The position numbers were made by a program, and so were the translations under genes. The notes beneath the pieces were generated by a model, which was not told the DNA's origin, made no database searches, and saw only the letters and a list, made by a program, of their open reading frames with translations. 64,000 nucleotides of DNA from Bifidobacterium breve (lineage in GTDB: Bacteria > Bacteroidota > Bacteroidia > Flavobacteriales > Flavobacteriaceae): NCBI GenBank assembly GCA_943323545.2, contig CALPIE020000001.1, forward strand, positions 4,347 through 68,346, written 5' to 3'. This document shows, one piece after another, positions 22,091 to 31,387 of the stretch (the first letter of the stretch is position 1; each line of letters opens with the position of its first letter).

Positions 22091-22675
22091 ATCGCTATAA
22101 TATCATACTTTATTTAAATTAAAAAATTGGATTCATTCTTTGATTCCATATGCAATTAAGTAGCAGCTACTTTTTATCAATTACGTTTATCAAAAAATCA
22201 AATCGATACAAATCTACTAAAAGTTTGTAATAGTAAATAAAAGAAGTAAAAATTGCGCTGAATATAAAAGATAAACTAATTAAAATCAATTATATAGCTG
22301 AATAATATTTAGGTGCAATATCGCAATATAGTAATAACTAAAATGTAATGGCTATGTACAGTAAACAAATCAAATGGACTTTTTTATAAATTAGAAAAGT
22401 GAAAAAATAAAGGTAAAATCAAATAGTAATTGTTAATTACTTCTTCAGTTTTTTATCAAAAATTGTCTGAAAAGGTTAATTATAAAGGCATTTTCGAAAA
22501 AATGTGTGTCATTCATCGGCTTAATTCCCCATACATCTAATAGTTGAAAACTTGTAATTCAGAAAGAGGAATCATCAAATTTATTAAAGTATTTTAGACT
22601 CGGAATAACGATTTTTTAATTATTATTTCATTTAGTCCCCAAGACTATCGTATAATAAACTTAATTATCTGATGC

Positions 22676-23683
22676 TTGCCTCAATCAAACAGGGAAGTAT
22701 TGAATAAGATAACTTTTATTATCATTGATGACAATCAAAACAATGTTTTGAAAACAAAAGCAGTTGCTGAAAGTTTCCAAGGCCTTGAATTTGTTGCTTC
22801 TGCTGCCAACTATGATGATGGATTGGATTGTGTTTTAGAATACAAACCTGACATCGTTTTTTTAGGAATAAATCCAGAAAATAAATCGTCAGACATTTCA
22901 TTGCGATTAATTAATGAATTATATCGTTTTTTACCTCAAATTCCTAGAATAATTGTTACTGCTCTCAATGAGAATTTAGCTTACGAAGCCATAAAATACG
23001 GTGTTTTTGATTATTTAGTTCAGCCAATTCAACAGAAAGACATTCGCAAAACAATCGCCCGTTTAAACAGAGATTTAAATAGCGACACGTCTTTAACTTC
23101 CAATATTCTTTTCGAAGAAAAAGTAATTCAGCAAATCATCGATGCTCCGGAGGAAAATTATGCTGAAGAAGAAGAGATAGATATTCCACAAAACAAAACC
23201 GAAATCAGCGAAGATATTCCAGAAAAAATCGAAGATGAGGCAATTACAGTGGAAAATAAGTCAGAAAAAACGAATTTATCAGCAATCGAAGCCCATCATG
23301 AAGTTACATTTACTAACGGAAATTCCGCCACTAAACCACTTATTATTTGCGTAAAATCGTATGGCGATTATCGATATATCCATGCGACGGATATCTGTTA
23401 TCTCCAAGCCGATAACAATTCAACCGATATACATCTGAGTTCTGGCGAAATGATTACCGCTTTTAAAACGCTTAAACACTTTGAAGGCGTAATGAAATAT
23501 CCTTTTGTGCGAATCCACAATAGTTATATCGTCAACATCGATTTTGTATCACGTATTCACACTGGTAATGCGGTTTGTCATATAAAAGACACCACTACAA
23601 AACTCCCGTTTTCCAAATCCTACAAAGAAAACATTGACGCTATTATTGCTACTATTGCTTCCGGAAATTATTTAGAAATTTAG
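22676..23683 (+). CDS. LytTR-family regulator with atypical receiver domain and acidic linker
   Basis: N-terminal receiver (IIIDD; DIVFLGIN, Gly at the phospho-Asp position) and C-terminal LytTR (YLQADNN, FVRIHNSYIVN); start codon uncertain (TTG 22676 or 22700). Confidence 0.88.
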   Translation: MPQSNREVLNKITFIIIDDNQNNVLKTKAVAESFQGLEFVASAANYDDGLDCVLEYKPDIVFLGINPENKSSDISLRLINELYRFLPQIPRIIVTALNENLAYEAIKYGVFDYLVQPIQQKDIRKTIARLNRDLNSDTSLTSNILFEEKVIQQIIDAPEENYAEEEEIDIPQNKTEISEDIPEKIEDEAITVENKSEKTNLSAIEAHHEVTFTNGNSATKPLIICVKSYGDYRYIHATDICYLQADNNSTDIHLSSGEMITAFKTLKHFEGVMKYPFVRIHNSYIVNIDFVSRIHTGNAVCHIKDTTTKLPFSKSYKENIDAIIATIASGNYLEI

Positions 23684-23725
23684 TGCGTTTTTTGTTTTTG
23701 AAATAAATTTTCATAGTTTCACATT

Positions 23726-24397
23726 ATGGAAAACAAATCAGTAAACATTCTAATGGTTGATGATCATACGCCTATTATTGAAGGATACAAATCAATTTTG
23801 TCCTATAATAAGTCGGGGTTTTCCATAATCACAAAAGAAGCAAATGACTGTGAATCAGCATACAAAATAATAACAAATCCGAGTAATGCTATTCTTTTTG
23901 ATTTGGTTTTTATTGATGTTACGTTGCCGCCATTTATCGAAAAAAATATTCACTCCGGAGAAGATTTGGTTCCCTTTATAAAAGAAAATTTACCAAATGC
24001 AAAGATTGTTATTCTTACTTCACACACCGAATCGTTGGTTTTATTTCGCATTCTAGACAACTGTAAACCAGATGGTTTATTGGTGAAAAGTGATTTTTCA
24101 TCCGAAGAGTTTTTAGTTGTTTTTGATACTATTTTGAGCGGCGAAAAGTACTACAGTAAAACCGTTTTAAAACACAGTAAAGACGTTTTAGAAAATCGTA
24201 AATTTTTAGATCATTACAACATTCAAATCATCATTTTGCTTTCTCAAGGCATTAAAACAAAGAACCTTCACGAACATTTGCATCTTTCTGTAAGTGCTAT
24301 CGATAAAAGAAAAGCGGTAATAAAAATATTTTTCGGCATCGAAAAAGGAACCGATGAAGACATACTTCGCGAAGCCAGAAAACAAGGATTCATTTAA
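23726..24397 (+). CDS. Response regulator, receiver + LuxR/NarL-like HTH
   Basis: MVDDH, DLVFIDV, C-terminal LSQG..LHLSVSAIDKRK. Confidence 0.9.
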   Translation: MENKSVNILMVDDHTPIIEGYKSILSYNKSGFSIITKEANDCESAYKIITNPSNAILFDLVFIDVTLPPFIEKNIHSGEDLVPFIKENLPNAKIVILTSHTESLVLFRILDNCKPDGLLVKSDFSSEEFLVVFDTILSGEKYYSKTVLKHSKDVLENRKFLDHYNIQIIILLSQGIKTKNLHEHLHLSVSAIDKRKAVIKIFFGIEKGTDEDILREARKQGFI

Positions 24398-24423
24398 AAC
24401 ATTTTCTTATCAAGTATTTTTTT

Positions 24424-24570
24424 TGGCGTTCCCCGATAGATAAAAATAAGTTGATAAACGTAGTTTTTACAAATCGGGGCCGGGCTTTTCGCTACAATCT
24501 TTTTTGCTCCGCCAGTTCGCTTCGCTCGTGCCGTTCCTCAAAAAGGATTTCCACTGCAATCCCTAACGCA
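24424..24570 (+). repeat. Structured intergenic repeat family A, copy 2
   Basis: TGGCGTTCCCC...GGGCTTTTCGCTACAATCTTTT...AAAAGGATTTCCACTGCAATCCCTAACGCA. Confidence 0.8.
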
Positions 24571-24593
24571 AACCTGTTTTTAAATAAAAAATA

Positions 24594-24638
24594 TACAGAA
24601 AAACTGTAATTTTTATTTTATACACTTCTTTAATTTTA
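24594..24638 (+). promoter_or_regulatory. Palindromic operator TACAG-N5-CTGTA with downstream -7-like box, copy 1
   Basis: 24-bp identity with 25386-25409; TAATTTTA begins 37 bp after the palindrome start. Confidence 0.65.
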
Positions 24639-24717
24639 CTTCAATAACAAAATAAAATATATAATCCTGCCAATTTGTTTTCGACGACACAAACCAGGAT
24701 TGCAATAATTAAAAATT

Positions 24718-25380
24718 ATGAAAAACTTTTCATTTGGCGCTATAGTCATACTTCTTTTATTTGGTACAAATTCCCTTAGCCAAACCACAATAAAAGAACA
24801 ATTAAAGACCTTAGAACAAAGCGTCGCTGCCACAAAACCAAACACGTATGTCTTTAACGTTGAAAGACAAAAAAGTGTGAGTATCTATGATTCTATAGGA
24901 TTAAAAGCCTGTCAATGTTTAGATTCTTTAATCGCATTTGTTGCAACCCAAAAGCAAATGGCTGCTGCCACTTTCGATCTTAATGTAAAACCCTATCTAG
25001 AAAAAAAGCTACTCGAAAGGAATATGGAAACACTTGATTTCTCTGATGAAGAAGACCTTATATATGAAAGTTTTATAAACGTATTGAATTATAACAATGC
25101 TATACCTACTGTACAATTATATGAAGATTTCATTGTAAAAAATTACAAAAATCAGGTGCTAATGTCAAATATCTTAACGGTTCTATCCTATATCAAACAT
25201 ACTTGTTTTTATTTATCGAATGAAGTTAGTGATCCGACTTTTAAATATACTATCCATTGTTTTAGAGAAGATGTATTATCATATAACGTTTTCAATTGGA
25301 AGGTTTTTGCGATACATCCAGGTGCAATGTTAATTTGGTCGATAGCAGCTTGTGCCTGGGATGCTAAATTTGAAAAGTAA
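24718..25380 (+). CDS. Exported hypothetical protein with hydrophobic Cys/Trp-containing C-terminus
   Basis: Signal peptide; C-terminal C...NWKVFAIHPGAMLIWSIAACAWD. Confidence 0.7.
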   Translation: MKNFSFGAIVILLLFGTNSLSQTTIKEQLKTLEQSVAATKPNTYVFNVERQKSVSIYDSIGLKACQCLDSLIAFVATQKQMAAATFDLNVKPYLEKKLLERNMETLDFSDEEDLIYESFINVLNYNNAIPTVQLYEDFIVKNYKNQVLMSNILTVLSYIKHTCFYLSNEVSDPTFKYTIHCFREDVLSYNVFNWKVFAIHPGAMLIWSIAACAWDAKFEK

Positions 25381-25385
25381 AAATG

Positions 25386-25430
25386 TACAGAAAAACTGTA
25401 ATTTTTATTGTAACCGACTTTTTAAATTTA
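25386..25430 (+). promoter_or_regulatory. Palindromic operator TACAG-N5-CTGTA with downstream -7-like box, copy 2
   Basis: TACAGAAAAACTGTAATTTTTATT; TAAATTTA at the same 37-bp offset. Confidence 0.65.
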
Positions 25431-25544
25431 CCAAATCATAATAAAAAGTTTTTAAAATAGAAACATAGCCGAATACACGCCAAAATTTGAATTTCGATTT
25501 CATCTAGCGCTATGTTTCTATTTGTTATCTTAAAATACTTAAAA

Positions 25545-25814
25545 ATGAAAACAAGTAACAACAATAGAATTCAAATTTTAGAATTTTTGCCACTTATTTT
25601 AATAGTCATTTATAAAATGGCAATTCAAACCAATGCAAGTATAAATCATCAAGATAAAATGATTGTGATGTATGTTTTTATTGCCATTTCTACAGTAGTG
25701 TTTGGCTATTTATTAATGAGAGACAAAAACACAAATGCTAAAAGTATTGTAAGTATTGTTATACTAGTTTCCTTAATAATAGTTTCTTGTTTTCTTTTTT
25801 ACTATAAAAAATAA
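25545..25814 (+). CDS. Small 3-TM membrane protein
   Basis: Three hydrophobic segments and a basic C-terminus; ATG 25545 in AT-rich context (alternative start 25512). Confidence 0.65.
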   Translation: MKTSNNNRIQILEFLPLILIVIYKMAIQTNASINHQDKMIVMYVFIAISTVVFGYLLMRDKNTNAKSIVSIVILVSLIIVSCFLFYYKK

Positions 25815-25877
25815 AGTAGTTAAAATTATATATTTATAGCTGTAAAAAATTGTTGAAAGTGATAACATATAAACACA

Positions 25878-27911
25878 ATGATTAAAACTTCGAAATATTT
25901 CTTTTTGATTCTGACACTAATGTTTTTTAGTTGCAACAAAAAAGCCAACTCAAACTTAGATGAAGCCAACAACGATTCGATTGCTAAATATTTGAAATTG
26001 GCGGGGAATGATTCGTTGGCTTTTCCGCTTCGTGATAAATACAATCAGAAGGCATTTTCGTTGATTGATTTGGGAAGGAATGATACGGTGGTGAGATGGT
26101 ATTTATGTCAAGCGGCTATTAATTTTAGTATAACAAAAAATAAATCACAGTATTATAAAATAAGTAAACTACATTTTAATAAATCAAAGGAAGCAAAAGA
26201 TACTCTTAATTTAGCAAGGTATTATAGGTATCGAGGGGGTTATTTTAAAAATAATACCAAACAGTTTGATAGTATGTTTTATTATTATACTAAAGCTGAA
26301 AAATTTTATAAAAGAACAGTTGATTATGAAGGATTATCAAGAGTTTACTTATTTAAAGGACATGCTCAATTTAATATTGATGACTATTTAGGCGCTGAAC
26401 TTTCAACTAATCAAGCGTTTAATATTATAAAAAAAAGAAAAGAAGATAGATTTACATATAGCGTGTTAAATCAATTGGGTAACATTGCCCACAATTTAAG
26501 ACATTATAATCATGCTATTAAGTTTCATGAAGAATCATTAAAATTAGCGAAAAGATTAAACTTGTCTGCAAGATTATATAACATGGATTTTATTAAAACT
26601 AGTTTAAATAATATTGGAAATTCTTATAAGGAGCAAAAAAAATATAGAAAGGCAATATATTATTTTGAGAAAGCTCTTTCAGATAAGAAAGAAATTAATG
26701 AAGATATATTAACTTATGCTTATTTATTTACGAATATTGGTTATTCAAAAATGCAATTAAAAGAATATTCTCAATTACCAAATTTATTTGAAAAAGCTAT
26801 AAAAATTTATGATAGTTTAGATATTAAAAATGAGTGTTCTTTGAGTTATGTGTATTTATCTGATTATTATTTTAGAATAAAAGACACTTCAAAAGCCATT
26901 TCCTATTCTGAAAAAGCATTACAAATTGCTAAAGAGTCAAAAGCACCTTATTACTATTTAATTGCATTAAGTCATGCTGGTTTTGTAAATAAATCAAAAG
27001 CTTCAAAATATATCAAAGAATACCACGAAAAGAATGATAGCATTCAATTTGAACAACGAAAAGTTCGCAATCAATTCTATAAAATCCAACTTGAAACCGA
27101 TGAAATTACCCAAGAAAAAGAGGCCGCAATAAAACAAAAGTGGGTGCTTTCCTCAACAATAGCGGGAATTCTGCTTATCGTAATATTGCTATTTATAATT
27201 CACAGACAACGCGCCAAACAAAAGGAGCTACAATTATTGCAGCTACAGCAAAAAGGCAATGAAGAAATTTACCATCTTATGCTCAACCAACAAGCAAAAG
27301 TAGAGGAAGCGCGCCAAATAGAAAAAAAACGCATCGCTTTAGAACTCCACGACGGAATTATGAACAAATTAGCCAGTACCCGACTCAATTTGTTTGTACT
27401 GTCTAAGAAAAATGATCCAGAAACCATCAATAAATGCTTGACTTATATTGAAGACATTCATCATATCGAAAACGAAATACGTAATGTGTCACACGAGCTA
27501 AATCAGGAACTCTTTACCGAAAAAGACAGTTTTAAAACACTTTTAAAGCAGTTTGTTGCCGAACAAAACAGTCATTTGAAAACCAATTACGAACTTCAAA
27601 TAGATAAAAACATCAATTGGGAGTTGATTTCTAGCGAAATAAAAATGCATTTGTACCGCATTATTCAAGAAGCTATAAACAATAGTAACAAACATGCAAA
27701 AGCTACAAAAGTGATTATTTGTATTACTATGGATGAAAACCAACTTTGTATGTCGATAACAGACAACGGAATTGGTTTCGATTCCCAAAAAACAAAAGAA
27801 GGCATTGGGTTATTAAACATACAACAACGCATTCACTCTTTAAACGGAACGCTTTCTATCGAATCAAAAGTAAAAAAGGGTACAGTTATTTATTTAAAAA
27901 TCCCATTTTAA
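25878..27911 (+). CDS. TPR-repeat sensor histidine kinase (HisKA_3 + HATPase_c) 1
   Basis: Lipobox-like FFSC, TPR repeats (LNQLGNI, LNNIGNSY), one TM, ELHDG H-box, QEAINN..KHA, DNGIGF, GIGL. Confidence 0.92.
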   Translation: MIKTSKYFFLILTLMFFSCNKKANSNLDEANNDSIAKYLKLAGNDSLAFPLRDKYNQKAFSLIDLGRNDTVVRWYLCQAAINFSITKNKSQYYKISKLHFNKSKEAKDTLNLARYYRYRGGYFKNNTKQFDSMFYYYTKAEKFYKRTVDYEGLSRVYLFKGHAQFNIDDYLGAELSTNQAFNIIKKRKEDRFTYSVLNQLGNIAHNLRHYNHAIKFHEESLKLAKRLNLSARLYNMDFIKTSLNNIGNSYKEQKKYRKAIYYFEKALSDKKEINEDILTYAYLFTNIGYSKMQLKEYSQLPNLFEKAIKIYDSLDIKNECSLSYVYLSDYYFRIKDTSKAISYSEKALQIAKESKAPYYYLIALSHAGFVNKSKASKYIKEYHEKNDSIQFEQRKVRNQFYKIQLETDEITQEKEAAIKQKWVLSSTIAGILLIVILLFIIHRQRAKQKELQLLQLQQKGNEEIYHLMLNQQAKVEEARQIEKKRIALELHDGIMNKLASTRLNLFVLSKKNDPETINKCLTYIEDIHHIENEIRNVSHELNQELFTEKDSFKTLLKQFVAEQNSHLKTNYELQIDKNINWELISSEIKMHLYRIIQEAINNSNKHAKATKVIICITMDENQLCMSITDNGIGFDSQKTKEGIGLLNIQQRIHSLNGTLSIESKVKKGTVIYLKIPF

Positions 27912-28133
27912 TTCCTTAATCAAACTTTTATACTTAAAGGATTCATTGATTTTGTTCTATTGAGTCTGTAGGTTTCTACTACTTCTTCATTCACAACTCC
28001 AAGATTATCTACAACAATCATCGACCAACTACACTTTTATTAAATAATTTATTTTTAAAATGTTGATTTTCAATATTTTAAGTTTATGAATTTTCTTTTT
28101 ATACTCCGAAAAACCACTTGGTTTTATAAATTG

Positions 28134-28184
28134 TTCATTCACCCTAATTTGCTATTCATTCACTCACAAACGGCGTTCATCTAC
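28134..28184 (+). promoter_or_regulatory. Three 9-bp direct repeats at 21-bp period (putative LytTR binding sites)
   Basis: TTCATTCAC 28134, TTCATTCAC 28155, TTCATCTAC 28176; a further TTCATTCAC at 27986. Confidence 0.7.
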
Positions 28185-28227
28185 CATATACACTATAAAG
28201 TATATCAATAGAACTCCAATGCTATAG

Positions 28228-28235
28228 TAGATTTG
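28228..28235 (+). promoter_or_regulatory. -7 box of the peptide-gene promoter
   Basis: TAGATTTG matches TAnnTTTG; no TTTG at the expected -33 position. Confidence 0.6.
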
Positions 28236-28321
28236 TCGAGTAAAAGCCTCAAAGAGTTGATGGCAAATCAAATGGCTTTTCTAAAATTAAAGTATAACAA
28301 AAAATATAAAACTTAGAAATT

Positions 28322-28564
28322 ATGAAAAAATCGTTATTAATAATCGGATTGTTCTCTTTAATGATGGTGTTGACATCATTTACGTCTCCTAATGAGACTG
28401 GAGGGAATAAAACAATAGGTGAATTTACAACAGGTGGTAATAAAACAGTAGGTGAATTTACAACTGGAGGTAATAAAACAATAGGTGAATTTACAACTGG
28501 AGGTAATAAAACAATAGGTGAGTTTACATACGAAACAGGTGGAAATAAAACTATAGGAGAATAA
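28322..28564 (+). CDS. Small secreted multi-core peptide precursor (5x TGGNKT[I/V]GE)
   Basis: Sec-type signal peptide, synonymous variation among the 33-bp repeats, own promoter and terminator. Confidence 0.85.
   Translation: MKKSLLIIGLFSLMMVLTSFTSPNETGGNKTIGEFTTGGNKTVGEFTTGGNKTIGEFTTGGNKTIGEFTYETGGNKTIGE
28397..28561 (+). repeat. Coding 33-bp tandem repeat, 5 units
   Basis: AC(T/A)GG(A/T)GGnAATAAAAC(A/T)(A/G)TAGGnGA units; one 6-bp insertion before the last unit. Confidence 0.9.
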
Positions 28565-28621: not shown

Positions 28622-28658
28622 GTCAAAAAAACACTATTTTTGAAAAAAAATAAAATTT

Positions 28659-30704
28659 TTGAGAAAATATAATTTCATATTAATATTTTTTTTCTTATTC
28701 GGATGTAAAGAAAATAAGAAACAAATAAAAATATTAAATGTTACACATGATAGCATTTCATATTTTCTTGATAGGGCAAATAGAAATTTAGAAAAAGATA
28801 TCAATAAAAGTTATGTTTTTTATAAAAAAGCTTTAAAATATTCTGATGAAATTACAAATGATTCCCTTAGTAGAGATTGTCTTTTTAAAATAAATTATGG
28901 CTTTTATAAACTAAAAAAGTGGGAAGATTTTAAAGAATCCTCTAAAATCTTACTAGAATATTCAATAGAAAGTAAAGATACTTTCCATATTGCACAAGTA
29001 TACAGATATAAAGGTAATTATTATAAAAACACATCTTTAAATGATAGTGCTTTTTATTATTATATAAAAGCTGAAAAATTATTTGATAAAATCAATGATA
29101 AAATCAATTTAGCAAATATTTTAACTAATAAAAGTGTTGTTCAATACAATACTGGAAATTATAATAGTGCAGATAAAACATTAACCCAATCATATTTTTT
29201 ATTAAAAAATTCAGAAGATAAAAATAAATTTTTTGAATGTTTAATCATGATGGGTGTAATTTCAAATGAAACAAAAAATTATGAACAGGCAATTGAATAT
29301 TACAATAAAGCATTAACAATTGTTAGGGAAAATAAAATAAAAACATCAATATTTGAAGAAGCTACGACATTAAATAATTTAGGTTATAATTATCAAAAAA
29401 TTGAGAATTATAATGAAGCAATAAAAAATTATAATTTAGCTTTAAAAGATAAAGAATTGGAAAATTCTTTGCCAGATTTATATAGCCTTCTAATTGATAA
29501 TCTTGCATATTCTAAATTTAAAATTAGAGACTTTAACAACATTCCAGATTTATTTTATAAAGGCTTAAGAATTAGAGAAAAAATAAATTCACCAACATTA
29601 ATTATTTTAAGTAAAATACATTTATCGGAGTATTATTTTGATAAAAAAGATTTAATATTATCTAAAAAGTTTGCAAATGAAGCTTTAAGACTATCTAAAG
29701 AAACTAAAAACACAAGAGATGTTTTAGCATCTTTAAAACAGGCTTCTAATGTTGATGCTGTTAATTCTTCAAAATTATCTAAGGATTATATTCGAATTAG
29801 TGACAGTATTAATGAAGTTGAAAGAAAGTCACAAGAAAAATTTGCCCGTCTTGAACTCGAAACGGAAGAAATTAAAGAGGAAAATACTCAACTATCTCAA
29901 AAAAATAGGACAATTCTAAATTACTTTATTAGCGCAATAATAATTGGAGGATTTTTATTTTTTGCGAGAACACAGCGATCACGATCAAGAGAATTAACAC
30001 TCAAACAATCCCAACAACAAGCCAATGAAGAAATATACCGACTTATCATTTCCCACCAAAATCAGCTTGAAGAAGGTAGAGATTTAGAAAAAAAACGACT
30101 CTCAAAAGAATTACACGACGGGGTTCTTGGCCGTTTGTTTGGACTTCGTCTCAACCTAGACGGTTTAAACAATAGCGATGATGAAATTTCAAAGCAACAA
30201 CGATTGGATTATCTTAACGAGCTGCAACTTATAGAGCAAGATCTTCGCGATATTTCGCATGAGTTAAACAGAGAGAACTTGGTGTTAATAAATAACTTCG
30301 TTGCCATCATCAATAACTTATTAGAACAACAAGCTAAAATAAATCCTGCCAAAATAAAAGCGATTATAGCTGACGATATCGATTGGGAAATATTGCCCAA
30401 CACTGCTAAAATTAATTTGTACCGAATTCTACAAGAAGCGCTGCAAAATATTAATAAACACGCTGAAGCTAAGAATATTTTAATCCATTTTAGAAAAGAT
30501 AAAAAAGGGAATTTGCTCTTTAATATTGAAGACGATGGGAAAGGTTATGATTTGAATAGCAAAAAAAGCAAAGGAATCGGAATGAAAAATATAGTGTCGA
30601 GAACACAACAATGTAATGGAATTATAGATATTAAATCGGAAATAGGAAAAGGTTCAAAAATTATTATTACTTTTCCACTCGAAAATAAAACCATAAAAGT
30701 TTAA
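28659..30704 (+). CDS. TPR-repeat sensor histidine kinase (HisKA_3 + HATPase_c) 2
   Basis: TTG start, lipobox-like LFGC, TPR repeats, TM, ELHDG H-box, QEALQNINKHA, DDGKG, GIGM. Confidence 0.92.
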   Translation: MRKYNFILIFFFLFGCKENKKQIKILNVTHDSISYFLDRANRNLEKDINKSYVFYKKALKYSDEITNDSLSRDCLFKINYGFYKLKKWEDFKESSKILLEYSIESKDTFHIAQVYRYKGNYYKNTSLNDSAFYYYIKAEKLFDKINDKINLANILTNKSVVQYNTGNYNSADKTLTQSYFLLKNSEDKNKFFECLIMMGVISNETKNYEQAIEYYNKALTIVRENKIKTSIFEEATTLNNLGYNYQKIENYNEAIKNYNLALKDKELENSLPDLYSLLIDNLAYSKFKIRDFNNIPDLFYKGLRIREKINSPTLIILSKIHLSEYYFDKKDLILSKKFANEALRLSKETKNTRDVLASLKQASNVDAVNSSKLSKDYIRISDSINEVERKSQEKFARLELETEEIKEENTQLSQKNRTILNYFISAIIIGGFLFFARTQRSRSRELTLKQSQQQANEEIYRLIISHQNQLEEGRDLEKKRLSKELHDGVLGRLFGLRLNLDGLNNSDDEISKQQRLDYLNELQLIEQDLRDISHELNRENLVLINNFVAIINNLLEQQAKINPAKIKAIIADDIDWEILPNTAKINLYRILQEALQNINKHAEAKNILIHFRKDKKGNLLFNIEDDGKGYDLNSKKSKGIGMKNIVSRTQQCNGIIDIKSEIGKGSKIIITFPLENKTIKV

Positions 30705-30709
30705 CAACA

Positions 30710-31387
30710 ATGCCCCACCAAAATATTAAAGTCTTAATCGTAGATGATCATCCTTTTATCATTCAAGGATATGAAAATGTGATTAATAGATTTCCTAATA
30801 AAAAAATAGAATTCACTATTTCAAAAGCAGTCGATTGCAAATCGGGTTACGAAATCATAATGAATGACAACGGAGAAACTTTCGATATTGCTTTTTTAGA
30901 CGTCAGTATGCCTGTTTATTTAGAAAAAGACATTCATACCGGAGAAGATTTAGCCAAATTACTTAACAAAGAAATGCCCGATTGTAAGATTGTTCTGCTA
31001 ACAATGCACTCGGAAAGTTTGAAAGTCCAAAAAATAATAGATGAAATTAATCCACTTGGCTTAGTCATCAAAAACGATTTGACTTTTGATAATATGTTGT
31101 TGGCCATCGAAACGGTTATAAAAGGTGAAAAATATTACAGTGATGCAGTAATTAAATTTTTAAACCAACAACAAAAAGAAAAAATCTACGTCGATGTCAT
31201 CGACAGACAAATTCTTCACTTTTTAAATAAAGGAATTCCAGCAGGAGATGTGGCTTTGTACATTCCAATTTCATCCAGTTCGGTAAAAACCAGAATTGAA
31301 AATATGAAAGAACTTATAGGAAAAACCGAATATACCGATAAAGAATTAGTTGCTGAAGCTAAAGAAAACGGAATGATGTTAAAATAG
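30710..31387 (+). CDS. Response regulator, receiver + LuxR/NarL-like HTH (paralog of 23726)
   Basis: IVDDHP, DIAFLDVSMP; shares IH(S/T)GEDL with the paralog. Confidence 0.9.
   Translation: MPHQNIKVLIVDDHPFIIQGYENVINRFPNKKIEFTISKAVDCKSGYEIIMNDNGETFDIAFLDVSMPVYLEKDIHTGEDLAKLLNKEMPDCKIVLLTMHSESLKVQKIIDEINPLGLVIKNDLTFDNMLLAIETVIKGEKYYSDAVIKFLNQQQKEKIYVDVIDRQILHFLNKGIPAGDVALYIPISSSSVKTRIENMKELIGKTEYTDKELVAEAKENGMMLK

Follow-up and report, generated by a model that had tools for sequence, protein, structure and literature searches.

A conserved triple direct-repeat array of LytTR type upstream of a multi-copy peptide gene in Flavobacteriaceae

Peptide pheromone loops are textbook knowledge for Gram-positive bacteria. 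In the agr system, the peptide and the sensor domain of its receptor form a variable cassette, and Bacillus ComQXPA joins a HisKA_3 kinase and a NarL-type regulator to a polymorphic peptide-receptor cassette, NarL/VraR-type regulators being the usual partners of HisKA_3 kinases. The sites of LytTR regulators are, according to the available part of PMC6193735, normally direct repeats of 9 bp with 12-bp spacers. Receivers without the phospho-acceptor aspartate have been discussed as being constitutively active or as forming heterodimers with a canonical partner (PMC12632262, accessible text), and for the kinase FimS of Porphyromonas gingivalis a polypeptide was suggested as the signal (PMC11053733, accessible text). 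For the Flavobacteriaceae, an abundant family of soil, freshwater and sea, no peptide pheromone loop is described in the literature searched.

The array reported here is located between glyS and thiL in a window of 64,000 nucleotides, i.e., the whole stretch of DNA that was analysed. The gene order of the locus is LytTR, an insert (RR1, two small proteins and HK1), boxes, peptide, HK2 and RR2, whereby LytTR, peptide, kinase and regulator constitute the core and the insert is lineage-specific. The features are as follows.

22512..22541, + strand: a different two-box element with a 20-bp period, upstream of the LytTR gene and recurring elsewhere in the genome
22676..23683, + strand: aspartate-less receiver plus LytTR DNA-binding domain, the likely reader of the boxes
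23726..27911, + strand: lineage-specific insert with RR1, a 220-aa exported protein, a 100-aa membrane protein and the TPR kinase HK1, outside the conserved core
27986..27994, + strand: isolated TTCATTCAC copy, conserved tail absent
28134..28151, + strand: box 1 of the putative operator (9-mer 28134-28142 plus conserved tail)
28155..28172, + strand: box 2, the best conserved of the three (9-mer 28155-28163 plus tail)
28176..28193, + strand: box 3, nearest to the promoter and most degenerate
28228..28235, + strand: sigma-A -7 element TAGATTTG, 72 bp after the unit start of box 2
28322..28564, + strand: peptide precursor of 80 aa, a hydrophobic signal sequence without Cys followed by five near-identical units of 11-12 residues
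28588..28622, + strand: intrinsic terminator 3' of the peptide gene (hairpin and T run)
28635..28642, + strand: second, canonical TAnnTTTG box, likely the own promoter of the kinase-regulator pair
28659..30704, + strand: HK2, with lipoprotein-like N terminus, TPR superhelix ectodomain, one transmembrane helix, HisKA_3 and HATPase
30710..31387, + strand: RR2, a NarL/VraR-type response regulator with Asp and Lys intact and a drifting helix-turn-helix

The box array and its promoter

A preliminary description of this DNA had reported three 9-bp repeats with 12-bp spacers, and these are present as claimed, TTCATTCAC starting at 28134 and 28155 and TTCATCTAC at 28176. The conserved unit comprises about 17 bp rather than 9, with conserved tails on boxes 1 and 2, and box 2 is the one closest to the boxes of marine and paralogous modules. 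Taken alone, the 9-mer is not enriched, as the window holds 7 matches as compared to 4.0 +/- 2.0 in shuffles, 10 out of 100 of which reach 7 matches; genome-wide, TTCATYYAC is found at 225 sites. Given this frequency, and with any one of 16 periods allowed, the expected number of triples per genome is 7e-6, a value which overstates the significance since the motif was defined from the same site. A scoring matrix built from 36 loci of other genomes yields 19.4, 19.7 and 14.9 bits for boxes 1, 2 and 3 respectively, and the window locus supplies the two highest-scoring pairs found anywhere in the assembly, with 39.1 and 34.5 bits, the runner-up pair at any spacing of 17-26 reaching 26.4 bits. The earlier proposed scan for TTCATYYAC-N12-TTCATYYAC returned, as near-exact 21-bp pairs in the 2.53-Mb assembly (G000), the window locus twice and one weak site, and within the assembly such a triple array is unique to the window locus. 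A search of G000, which is 87% complete, gave no second target for the boxes, and the off-locus pattern matches examined in other genomes (19 and three more, leaving out one in G334 and the second matches of G108 and G409) all fall inside reading frames. The extra TTCATTCAC copy at 27986, which had been listed along with the array, exists; it is devoid of the conserved tail and scores -1.9 bits as compared to 14.9-19.7 for the three boxes. Considering this score and the 22 exact copies of TTCATTCAC in the assembly, it probably arose by chance and has no evident role.

The TAGATTTG -7 box was likewise described correctly, locating to 28228-28235 with TTTG absent at the -33 position of the peptide promoter. 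Transcription of the peptide gene would start near 28240, and as the sigma-A box of F. psychrophilum spans -12 to -5 (PMC9723704, accessible part), the boxes come to lie at about -106 to -47, which is where an activator would be expected to sit. Altogether 79 loci were collected, the named relatives being Flavobacterium and other Flavobacteriaceae, and 39 loci of the Flavobacterium type (window included, one duplicate dropped) were compared. In 39/39 of these a TAnnTTT(A/G) box is found at a distance of 71 or 72 bp downstream of box 2, its last base being A in 35 loci and G in four, and the -33 TTTG is absent in 39/39. A terminator consisting of a hairpin and a T run was identified 3' of the peptide gene in 43/43 loci, and a TAnnTTT(G/A) box between terminator and kinase in 34/43. 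Terminator and second -7 box taken together mean that the operator would drive or amplify the peptide alone. A Sigma-70 promoter scan, which is unsuited to this phylum, gave 9 sites as compared to 6.0 +/- 3.2.

The stretch separating the LytTR gene from box 1 (window 23684-28133; also L004, L007, L008 and L031) is an insertion hot spot, where additional regulators and TPR kinases accumulate together with small exported proteins. In the window, identical TACAG-N5-CTGTA inverted repeats are found upstream of the 220-aa and 100-aa genes (24594-24608 and 25386-25400). The assembly holds three of them, the third (C8:4105) preceding a similar exported protein, and L112, a module without LytTR, has the repeat before its peptide gene as well; it is likely the operator of RR1. 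The motif of the 20-bp-period element recurs in G000 at C39:16672, C54:308, C45:4266, C7:29997 and C181:1838, where it precedes the canonical LytTR regulator of C39, a DnaA-like gene and large exported proteins. Possibly it is the site of the C39 regulator, and the copy upstream of the LytTR gene is a possible outside input to that gene.

Conservation of the array and its probable reader

The spacing first described for the window proved to be conserved in orthologous loci. In a free search, box 1 was found at -21 from box 2 in 37/39 loci and box 3 at +21 in 30/39, whereby most of the box-3 misses are a variant that aligns earlier by one base; at +21, conservation reaches 97-100% in four of the box-3 columns across the 39 loci. 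L048, whose box 1 is poor, had to be shifted by 4 bp by hand. Beyond this type, three related boxes occur in 22/22 loci of marine Flavobacteriaceae, where the period of 21 was assumed, and in 5/7 loci of the paralogous module, which has its canonical TAnnTTTG at +71. With a matrix derived from Flavobacterium loci the identical register was hit in 4/7 paralogous and 12/22 marine promoters, each of these with a -7-like box at +70/71, and an unbiased repeat search covering 21 periods chose period 21 in 41/79 LytTR-module promoters and in 1/6 others. The reading that the repeats arose by chance in A+T-rich DNA, for which the lack of enrichment of the single 9-mer may be cited, is already refuted by this fixed-spacing conservation across the family and retains a negligible probability: the backwards-pattern control gave only 8 matches in 201 genomes, and a mis-spaced pattern with a 22-bp period occurs in 12 genomes, 12 of its 13 places having been examined and all of these lying inside reading frames.

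Several loci depart from this arrangement. L216 and L217 keep LytTR, peptide, kinase and regulator and truly lack the triple box; an inverted repeat lies upstream of their -7 box, which suggests that they have switched to control by the NarL-type regulator. No triple box is present in L105 and L107, and L119 has retained the -7 box and lost the boxes, though a divergent LytTR is encoded elsewhere in its genome. L212 has two peptide-kinase units behind a single LytTR; the units differ in their peptides, and each possesses a triple box of its own. The triple of L222 and L223, read by eye, resides directly behind LytTR and farther from the peptide; in these two and in L101 triple and -7 box behind LytTR are followed by a short terminated stretch without recognised peptide gene, which is possibly a small RNA or a small ORF. 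In L067-L074 a possible fourth box, resembling the Flavobacterium box 1, was identified inside the 3' coding end of LytTR, 21 bp upstream of box 1.

The LytTR gene ends no more than 20 bp from box 1 in 15/39 loci and no more than 400 bp from it in 27/39, the stop being farther away in the remaining 12, the window included, and in 21/22 marine loci it directly precedes box 1. This LytTR type is found in 163/201 sampled genomes of the genus, in 11/17 genomes of the family and in 0/233 other genomes of the phylum sample (E 1e-22). A close LytTR ortholog is encoded in 127 of the 201 genus genomes and a divergent one in 36; 38 have none. The box-2/3 pattern matches 101 of the 201, namely 96/127, 2/36 and 3/38 respectively, counts which are not independent and overstate the co-occurrence as the genomes are related; at least three of the 96 are off-locus chance matches, and the three LytTR-less matches each carry a mismatch and sit in a reading frame. 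Exact box-2/3 matches number 64 in the 201 genomes, all within the 127 with a close ortholog and none in the other 74. In a held-out test, for which 17 of 19 kinase loci in LytTR-less genomes were newly taken (two were already included) and in which a peptide was called in 13 LytTR-less loci, one of them probably wrongly, box and promoter geometry was found in 0/13 LytTR-less promoters as compared to 15/19 beside a divergent LytTR, the four misses being L216, L217, L222 and L223.

The LytTR domain aligns to the LytTR domains of AgrA (profile match, E 4e-8). Over the 39 loci the mean identity amounts to 80% for the LytTR DNA-binding domain and to 51% for the RR2 recognition helix, which falls as low as 15%. 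In the LytTR protein of the window a long acidic linker, at residues of about 140-220, separates pseudo-receiver and LytTR domain; its length is very variable, the proteins having about 240 to 360 aa. The proposal of a LytTR-type operator that is recognised by the protein encoded at 22676 is well supported by the conservation of the array, by ancestral adjacency and by co-occurrence, and it is very probable, judged from sequence comparison, that this protein binds the boxes. Another reader, either RR2 or one of the two further LytTR proteins of the genome, would be conceivable because RR2 is the likely phosphorylation partner of the kinase, because G000 does encode two further LytTR domains, and because the module does without boxes in L216 and L217. 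This reading is very improbable, as the RR2 recognition helix varies widely among loci which share the same boxes, as NarL-type modules without LytTR have no boxes (0/13) and in part bear inverted repeats instead, and as the canonical C39 LytTR has the different 20-bp-period motif before its own gene.

Peptide, receptor kinase and aspartate-less regulator

The peptide precursor belongs to no Pfam or NCBIfam family and has no match in 50,697 phage records. Precursors consist of a conserved signal sequence, with Cys in 0/43, and of species-specific units, which are repetitive in 31/39 peptides; those of the marine and paralogous modules are lipoprotein-like. In one clade (L091-L095, L132 and L136) each precursor holds two differing units rather than identical repeats, and these units each end in a K-K/R-L/V/I-D-like motif. 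A RiPP reading was rejected, as the conserved locus holds no modifying enzyme, and no dedicated maturation or export gene of the AgrB or ComAB type was found in the conserved core. The HK2-type kinases possess a hydrophobic N terminus with Cys in 42/43 cases and a hydrophobic helix before the kinase core, and the His is retained in 43/43. In the model of the HK2 ectodomain (pLDDT 91) the fold is a TPR superhelix similar to LGN, Rap and NprR, with a TM-score of 0.69 to RapI, and RR2 resembles VraR and NarL.

Comparison of close relatives revealed where the module varies. L011 and L012 are 99% identical in LytTR, RR2 and the kinase cytoplasmic part as compared to 44% in the ectodomain, L035 and L036 show 95-99% elsewhere and 46% in the ectodomain, and in both pairs the peptides differ; for L022 and L036 the relation is reversed, with 79% in the ectodomain, 64% in the cytoplasmic part and peptides alike. 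In four close pairs the DNA identity drops from about 95% to about 50% at the signal-peptide end and recovers just before the transmembrane helix, so that the boxes fall outside the swapped cassette. The partial correlation between peptide and ectodomain amounts to 0.51 (0/500 permutations), the 741 pairs not being independent, and owing to their adjacency the two would be expected to be transferred jointly even if they did not bind each other. Judging from these comparisons, peptide and TPR ectodomain are swapped jointly as one cassette, the signature of a pherotype, and the peptide is probably the ligand of HK2.

As to how such a signal would reach the promoter, autoinduction in the manner of AgrA or ComE, as initially put forward, is not supported as stated, since the phospho-acceptor Asp of LytTR is absent in 94/97 homologues, being Glu, Gly, Asn or other, and the three homologues with Asp are without the conserved Lys. 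By sequence, LytTR is an aspartate-less receiver, i.e., an atypical response regulator as defined in the accessible part of PMC12632262, while Asp and Lys are intact in 111/111 NarL-type regulators examined. The kinase thus cannot activate LytTR by usual phosphotransfer, and any feedback must be indirect. The pseudo-receiver of LytTR has a mean identity of 56% over the 39 loci and stays beside kinase and regulator across the family, and the receiver of RR2 is better conserved than its DNA-binding part (67% vs 53%).

The preferred model, to which we assign a probability of about 0.5, is a closed positive autoinduction running via boxes, peptide, HK2, RR2 and LytTR. LytTR would bind the three boxes and activate, rather than repress, the weak sigma-A promoter of the peptide gene, whose stand-alone mRNA would yield a secreted multi-copy peptide. 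The precursor would be processed into single units which pass the outer membrane and bind the matched HK2 ectodomain in a strain-specific manner, whereupon HK2 would phosphorylate RR2. Phosphorylated RR2 in turn may switch the LytTR pseudo-receiver, in the simplest form by a receiver-receiver heterodimer, and the presumed positive sign of the loop would result in autoinduction.

Alternatively the loop may be open, meaning that LytTR drives the peptide constitutively at a rate set by its own level and that the peptide acts via HK2 and RR2 on other genes without feedback. Such a circuit would fit with the Glu found at the phospho position in 58/68 Flavobacterium-type homologues, a possible phosphomimic (PMC12632262, accessible text), with the separate 20-bp-period element upstream of the LytTR gene, the C39 regulator gene and other genes, and with the kinase having its own canonical promoter. 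It is considered unlikely, as Gly, Asn and others replace Glu in the window's clade and in the marine and paralogous groups, and as both the retention of the pseudo-receiver beside kinase and regulator and the higher conservation of the RR2 receiver speak against it.

Rap proteins are inhibited by their peptides, and with Rap-type TPR domains a peptide inhibits as often as it activates. The feedback may be negative or cell-autonomous, whereby the LytTR-driven peptide would stay periplasmic (or, where it is a lipoprotein, on the outer membrane) and would inhibit the kinase; the circuit would then report leakage, proteolysis or kin contact rather than cell density. The signal sequence brings the peptide into the compartment of the receptor ectodomain, the conserved locus has no exporter or protease gene, the marine and paralogous peptides are lipoprotein-like, and the closest folds include Rap proteins, all of which agrees with this version. 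A private signal gives however little reason for swapping cassettes from strain to strain or for several identical copies per precursor (31/39 repetitive), which renders it rather improbable.

Returning to the closed positive loop, a more far-reaching reading was considered, according to which the Flavobacteriaceae would possess true quorum sensing or kin recognition by peptides, with pherotypes that can be swapped. Its parts would be a multi-copy precursor resembling that of a fungal pheromone, a kinase onto which an RRNPP-like TPR domain has been grafted, RR2 and a LytTR amplifier. Here phosphorylated RR2 would turn on a LytTR whose only job is the amplification of the signal through the triple operator. 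Taken as a whole, this reading is tentative.

Significance and comparison with known systems

A description of the module was not found in the literature searched, most subscription papers being beyond the reach of that search. In the accessible transcriptome tables of F. psychrophilum (PMC9723704) the module was not identified in 4 LytTR and 14/15 kinase rows, and a split kinase of the same source, THC0290_1309/1311, was rejected as its neighbours are others; the accessible parts of PMC10197871 and PMC5395568 do not describe the locus. New here are the operator, its family-wide geometry, its dependence on LytTR and the boundaries of the cassette. The boxes would be what turns on a peptide signalling system of Gram-negative bacteria which is likely specific to the strain, and the operator offers a ready reporter, given a promoter of about 110 bp, a synthesisable peptide and strain pairs which differ almost only in peptide and receptor. 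Cultured environmental strains with the module include F. aquatile LMG 4008 (L019) and F. cheonanense (L036). Thereby peptide-based counting or kin recognition in these bacteria, the signals perceived by FimS and other TPR kinases of the Bacteroidota, and the switching of an aspartate-less regulator become testable.

The module shares with agr and ComCDE/BlpCRH a LytTR regulator, direct repeats two turns apart before the peptide promoter (spacing as in the available part of PMC6193735) and a membrane kinase, and as in agr/com the peptide and the receptor sensor domain vary together as a cassette. It differs in its Gram-negative host, in a Sec-type signal instead of AgrB or double-glycine export, in several copies per precursor, in a TPR ectodomain with a HisKA_3 kinase in place of a polytopic sensor, in a LytTR without phospho-Asp accompanied by an extra NarL-type regulator, in a peptide gene terminated before the kinase and in having three boxes. 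Without phospho-Asp and dedicated exporter it is not a member of these systems, but would work like them.

With the LRS (HdrRM and BrsRM; PMC6193735, available part) it would have in common a phosphorylation-independent activation by LytTR via 9+12 bp repeats near the promoter. An LRS is a two-gene operon with the repeats upstream of it, in which a membrane inhibitor restrains the LytTR regulator and the regulator activates the operon that encodes it, whereas here a pseudo-receiver regulator would target a peptide gene and has a kinase and a second regulator as partners; the triple follows the LytTR gene and precedes that of the peptide, and no conserved membrane inhibitor was found.

FimS-FimR of P. 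gingivalis likewise involves a Bacteroidota kinase with a periplasmic TPR sensor, and the accessible text of PMC11053733 describes no peptide ligand, LytTR partner or operator for it. Residues 113-421 of HK2 show a weak similarity to the FimS model (E 7e-11), and membership of the FimS family (NF053520) was rejected with 41.1 bits as compared to a cut-off of 600. The TPR superhelix adjoining a Sec-exported propeptide recalls the RRNPP systems (Rap and NprR), whose receptors are cytoplasmic and need re-import of the peptide, while here the TPR domain resides outside the inner membrane, fused to the kinase. ComQXPA resembles the module in combining HisKA_3 kinase, NarL-type regulator and polymorphic peptide-receptor cassette; the module differs by the lack of a prenyltransferase, by its TPR sensor and by a dedicated LytTR activator of the peptide gene. 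As in WhiI-BldM and CmrT-CmrR (PMC12632262, accessible text), finally, an atypical regulator is encoded with a canonical kinase-regulator pair, whereby the partners in those systems share one DNA-binding family and here a LytTR-NarL pairing would be formed.
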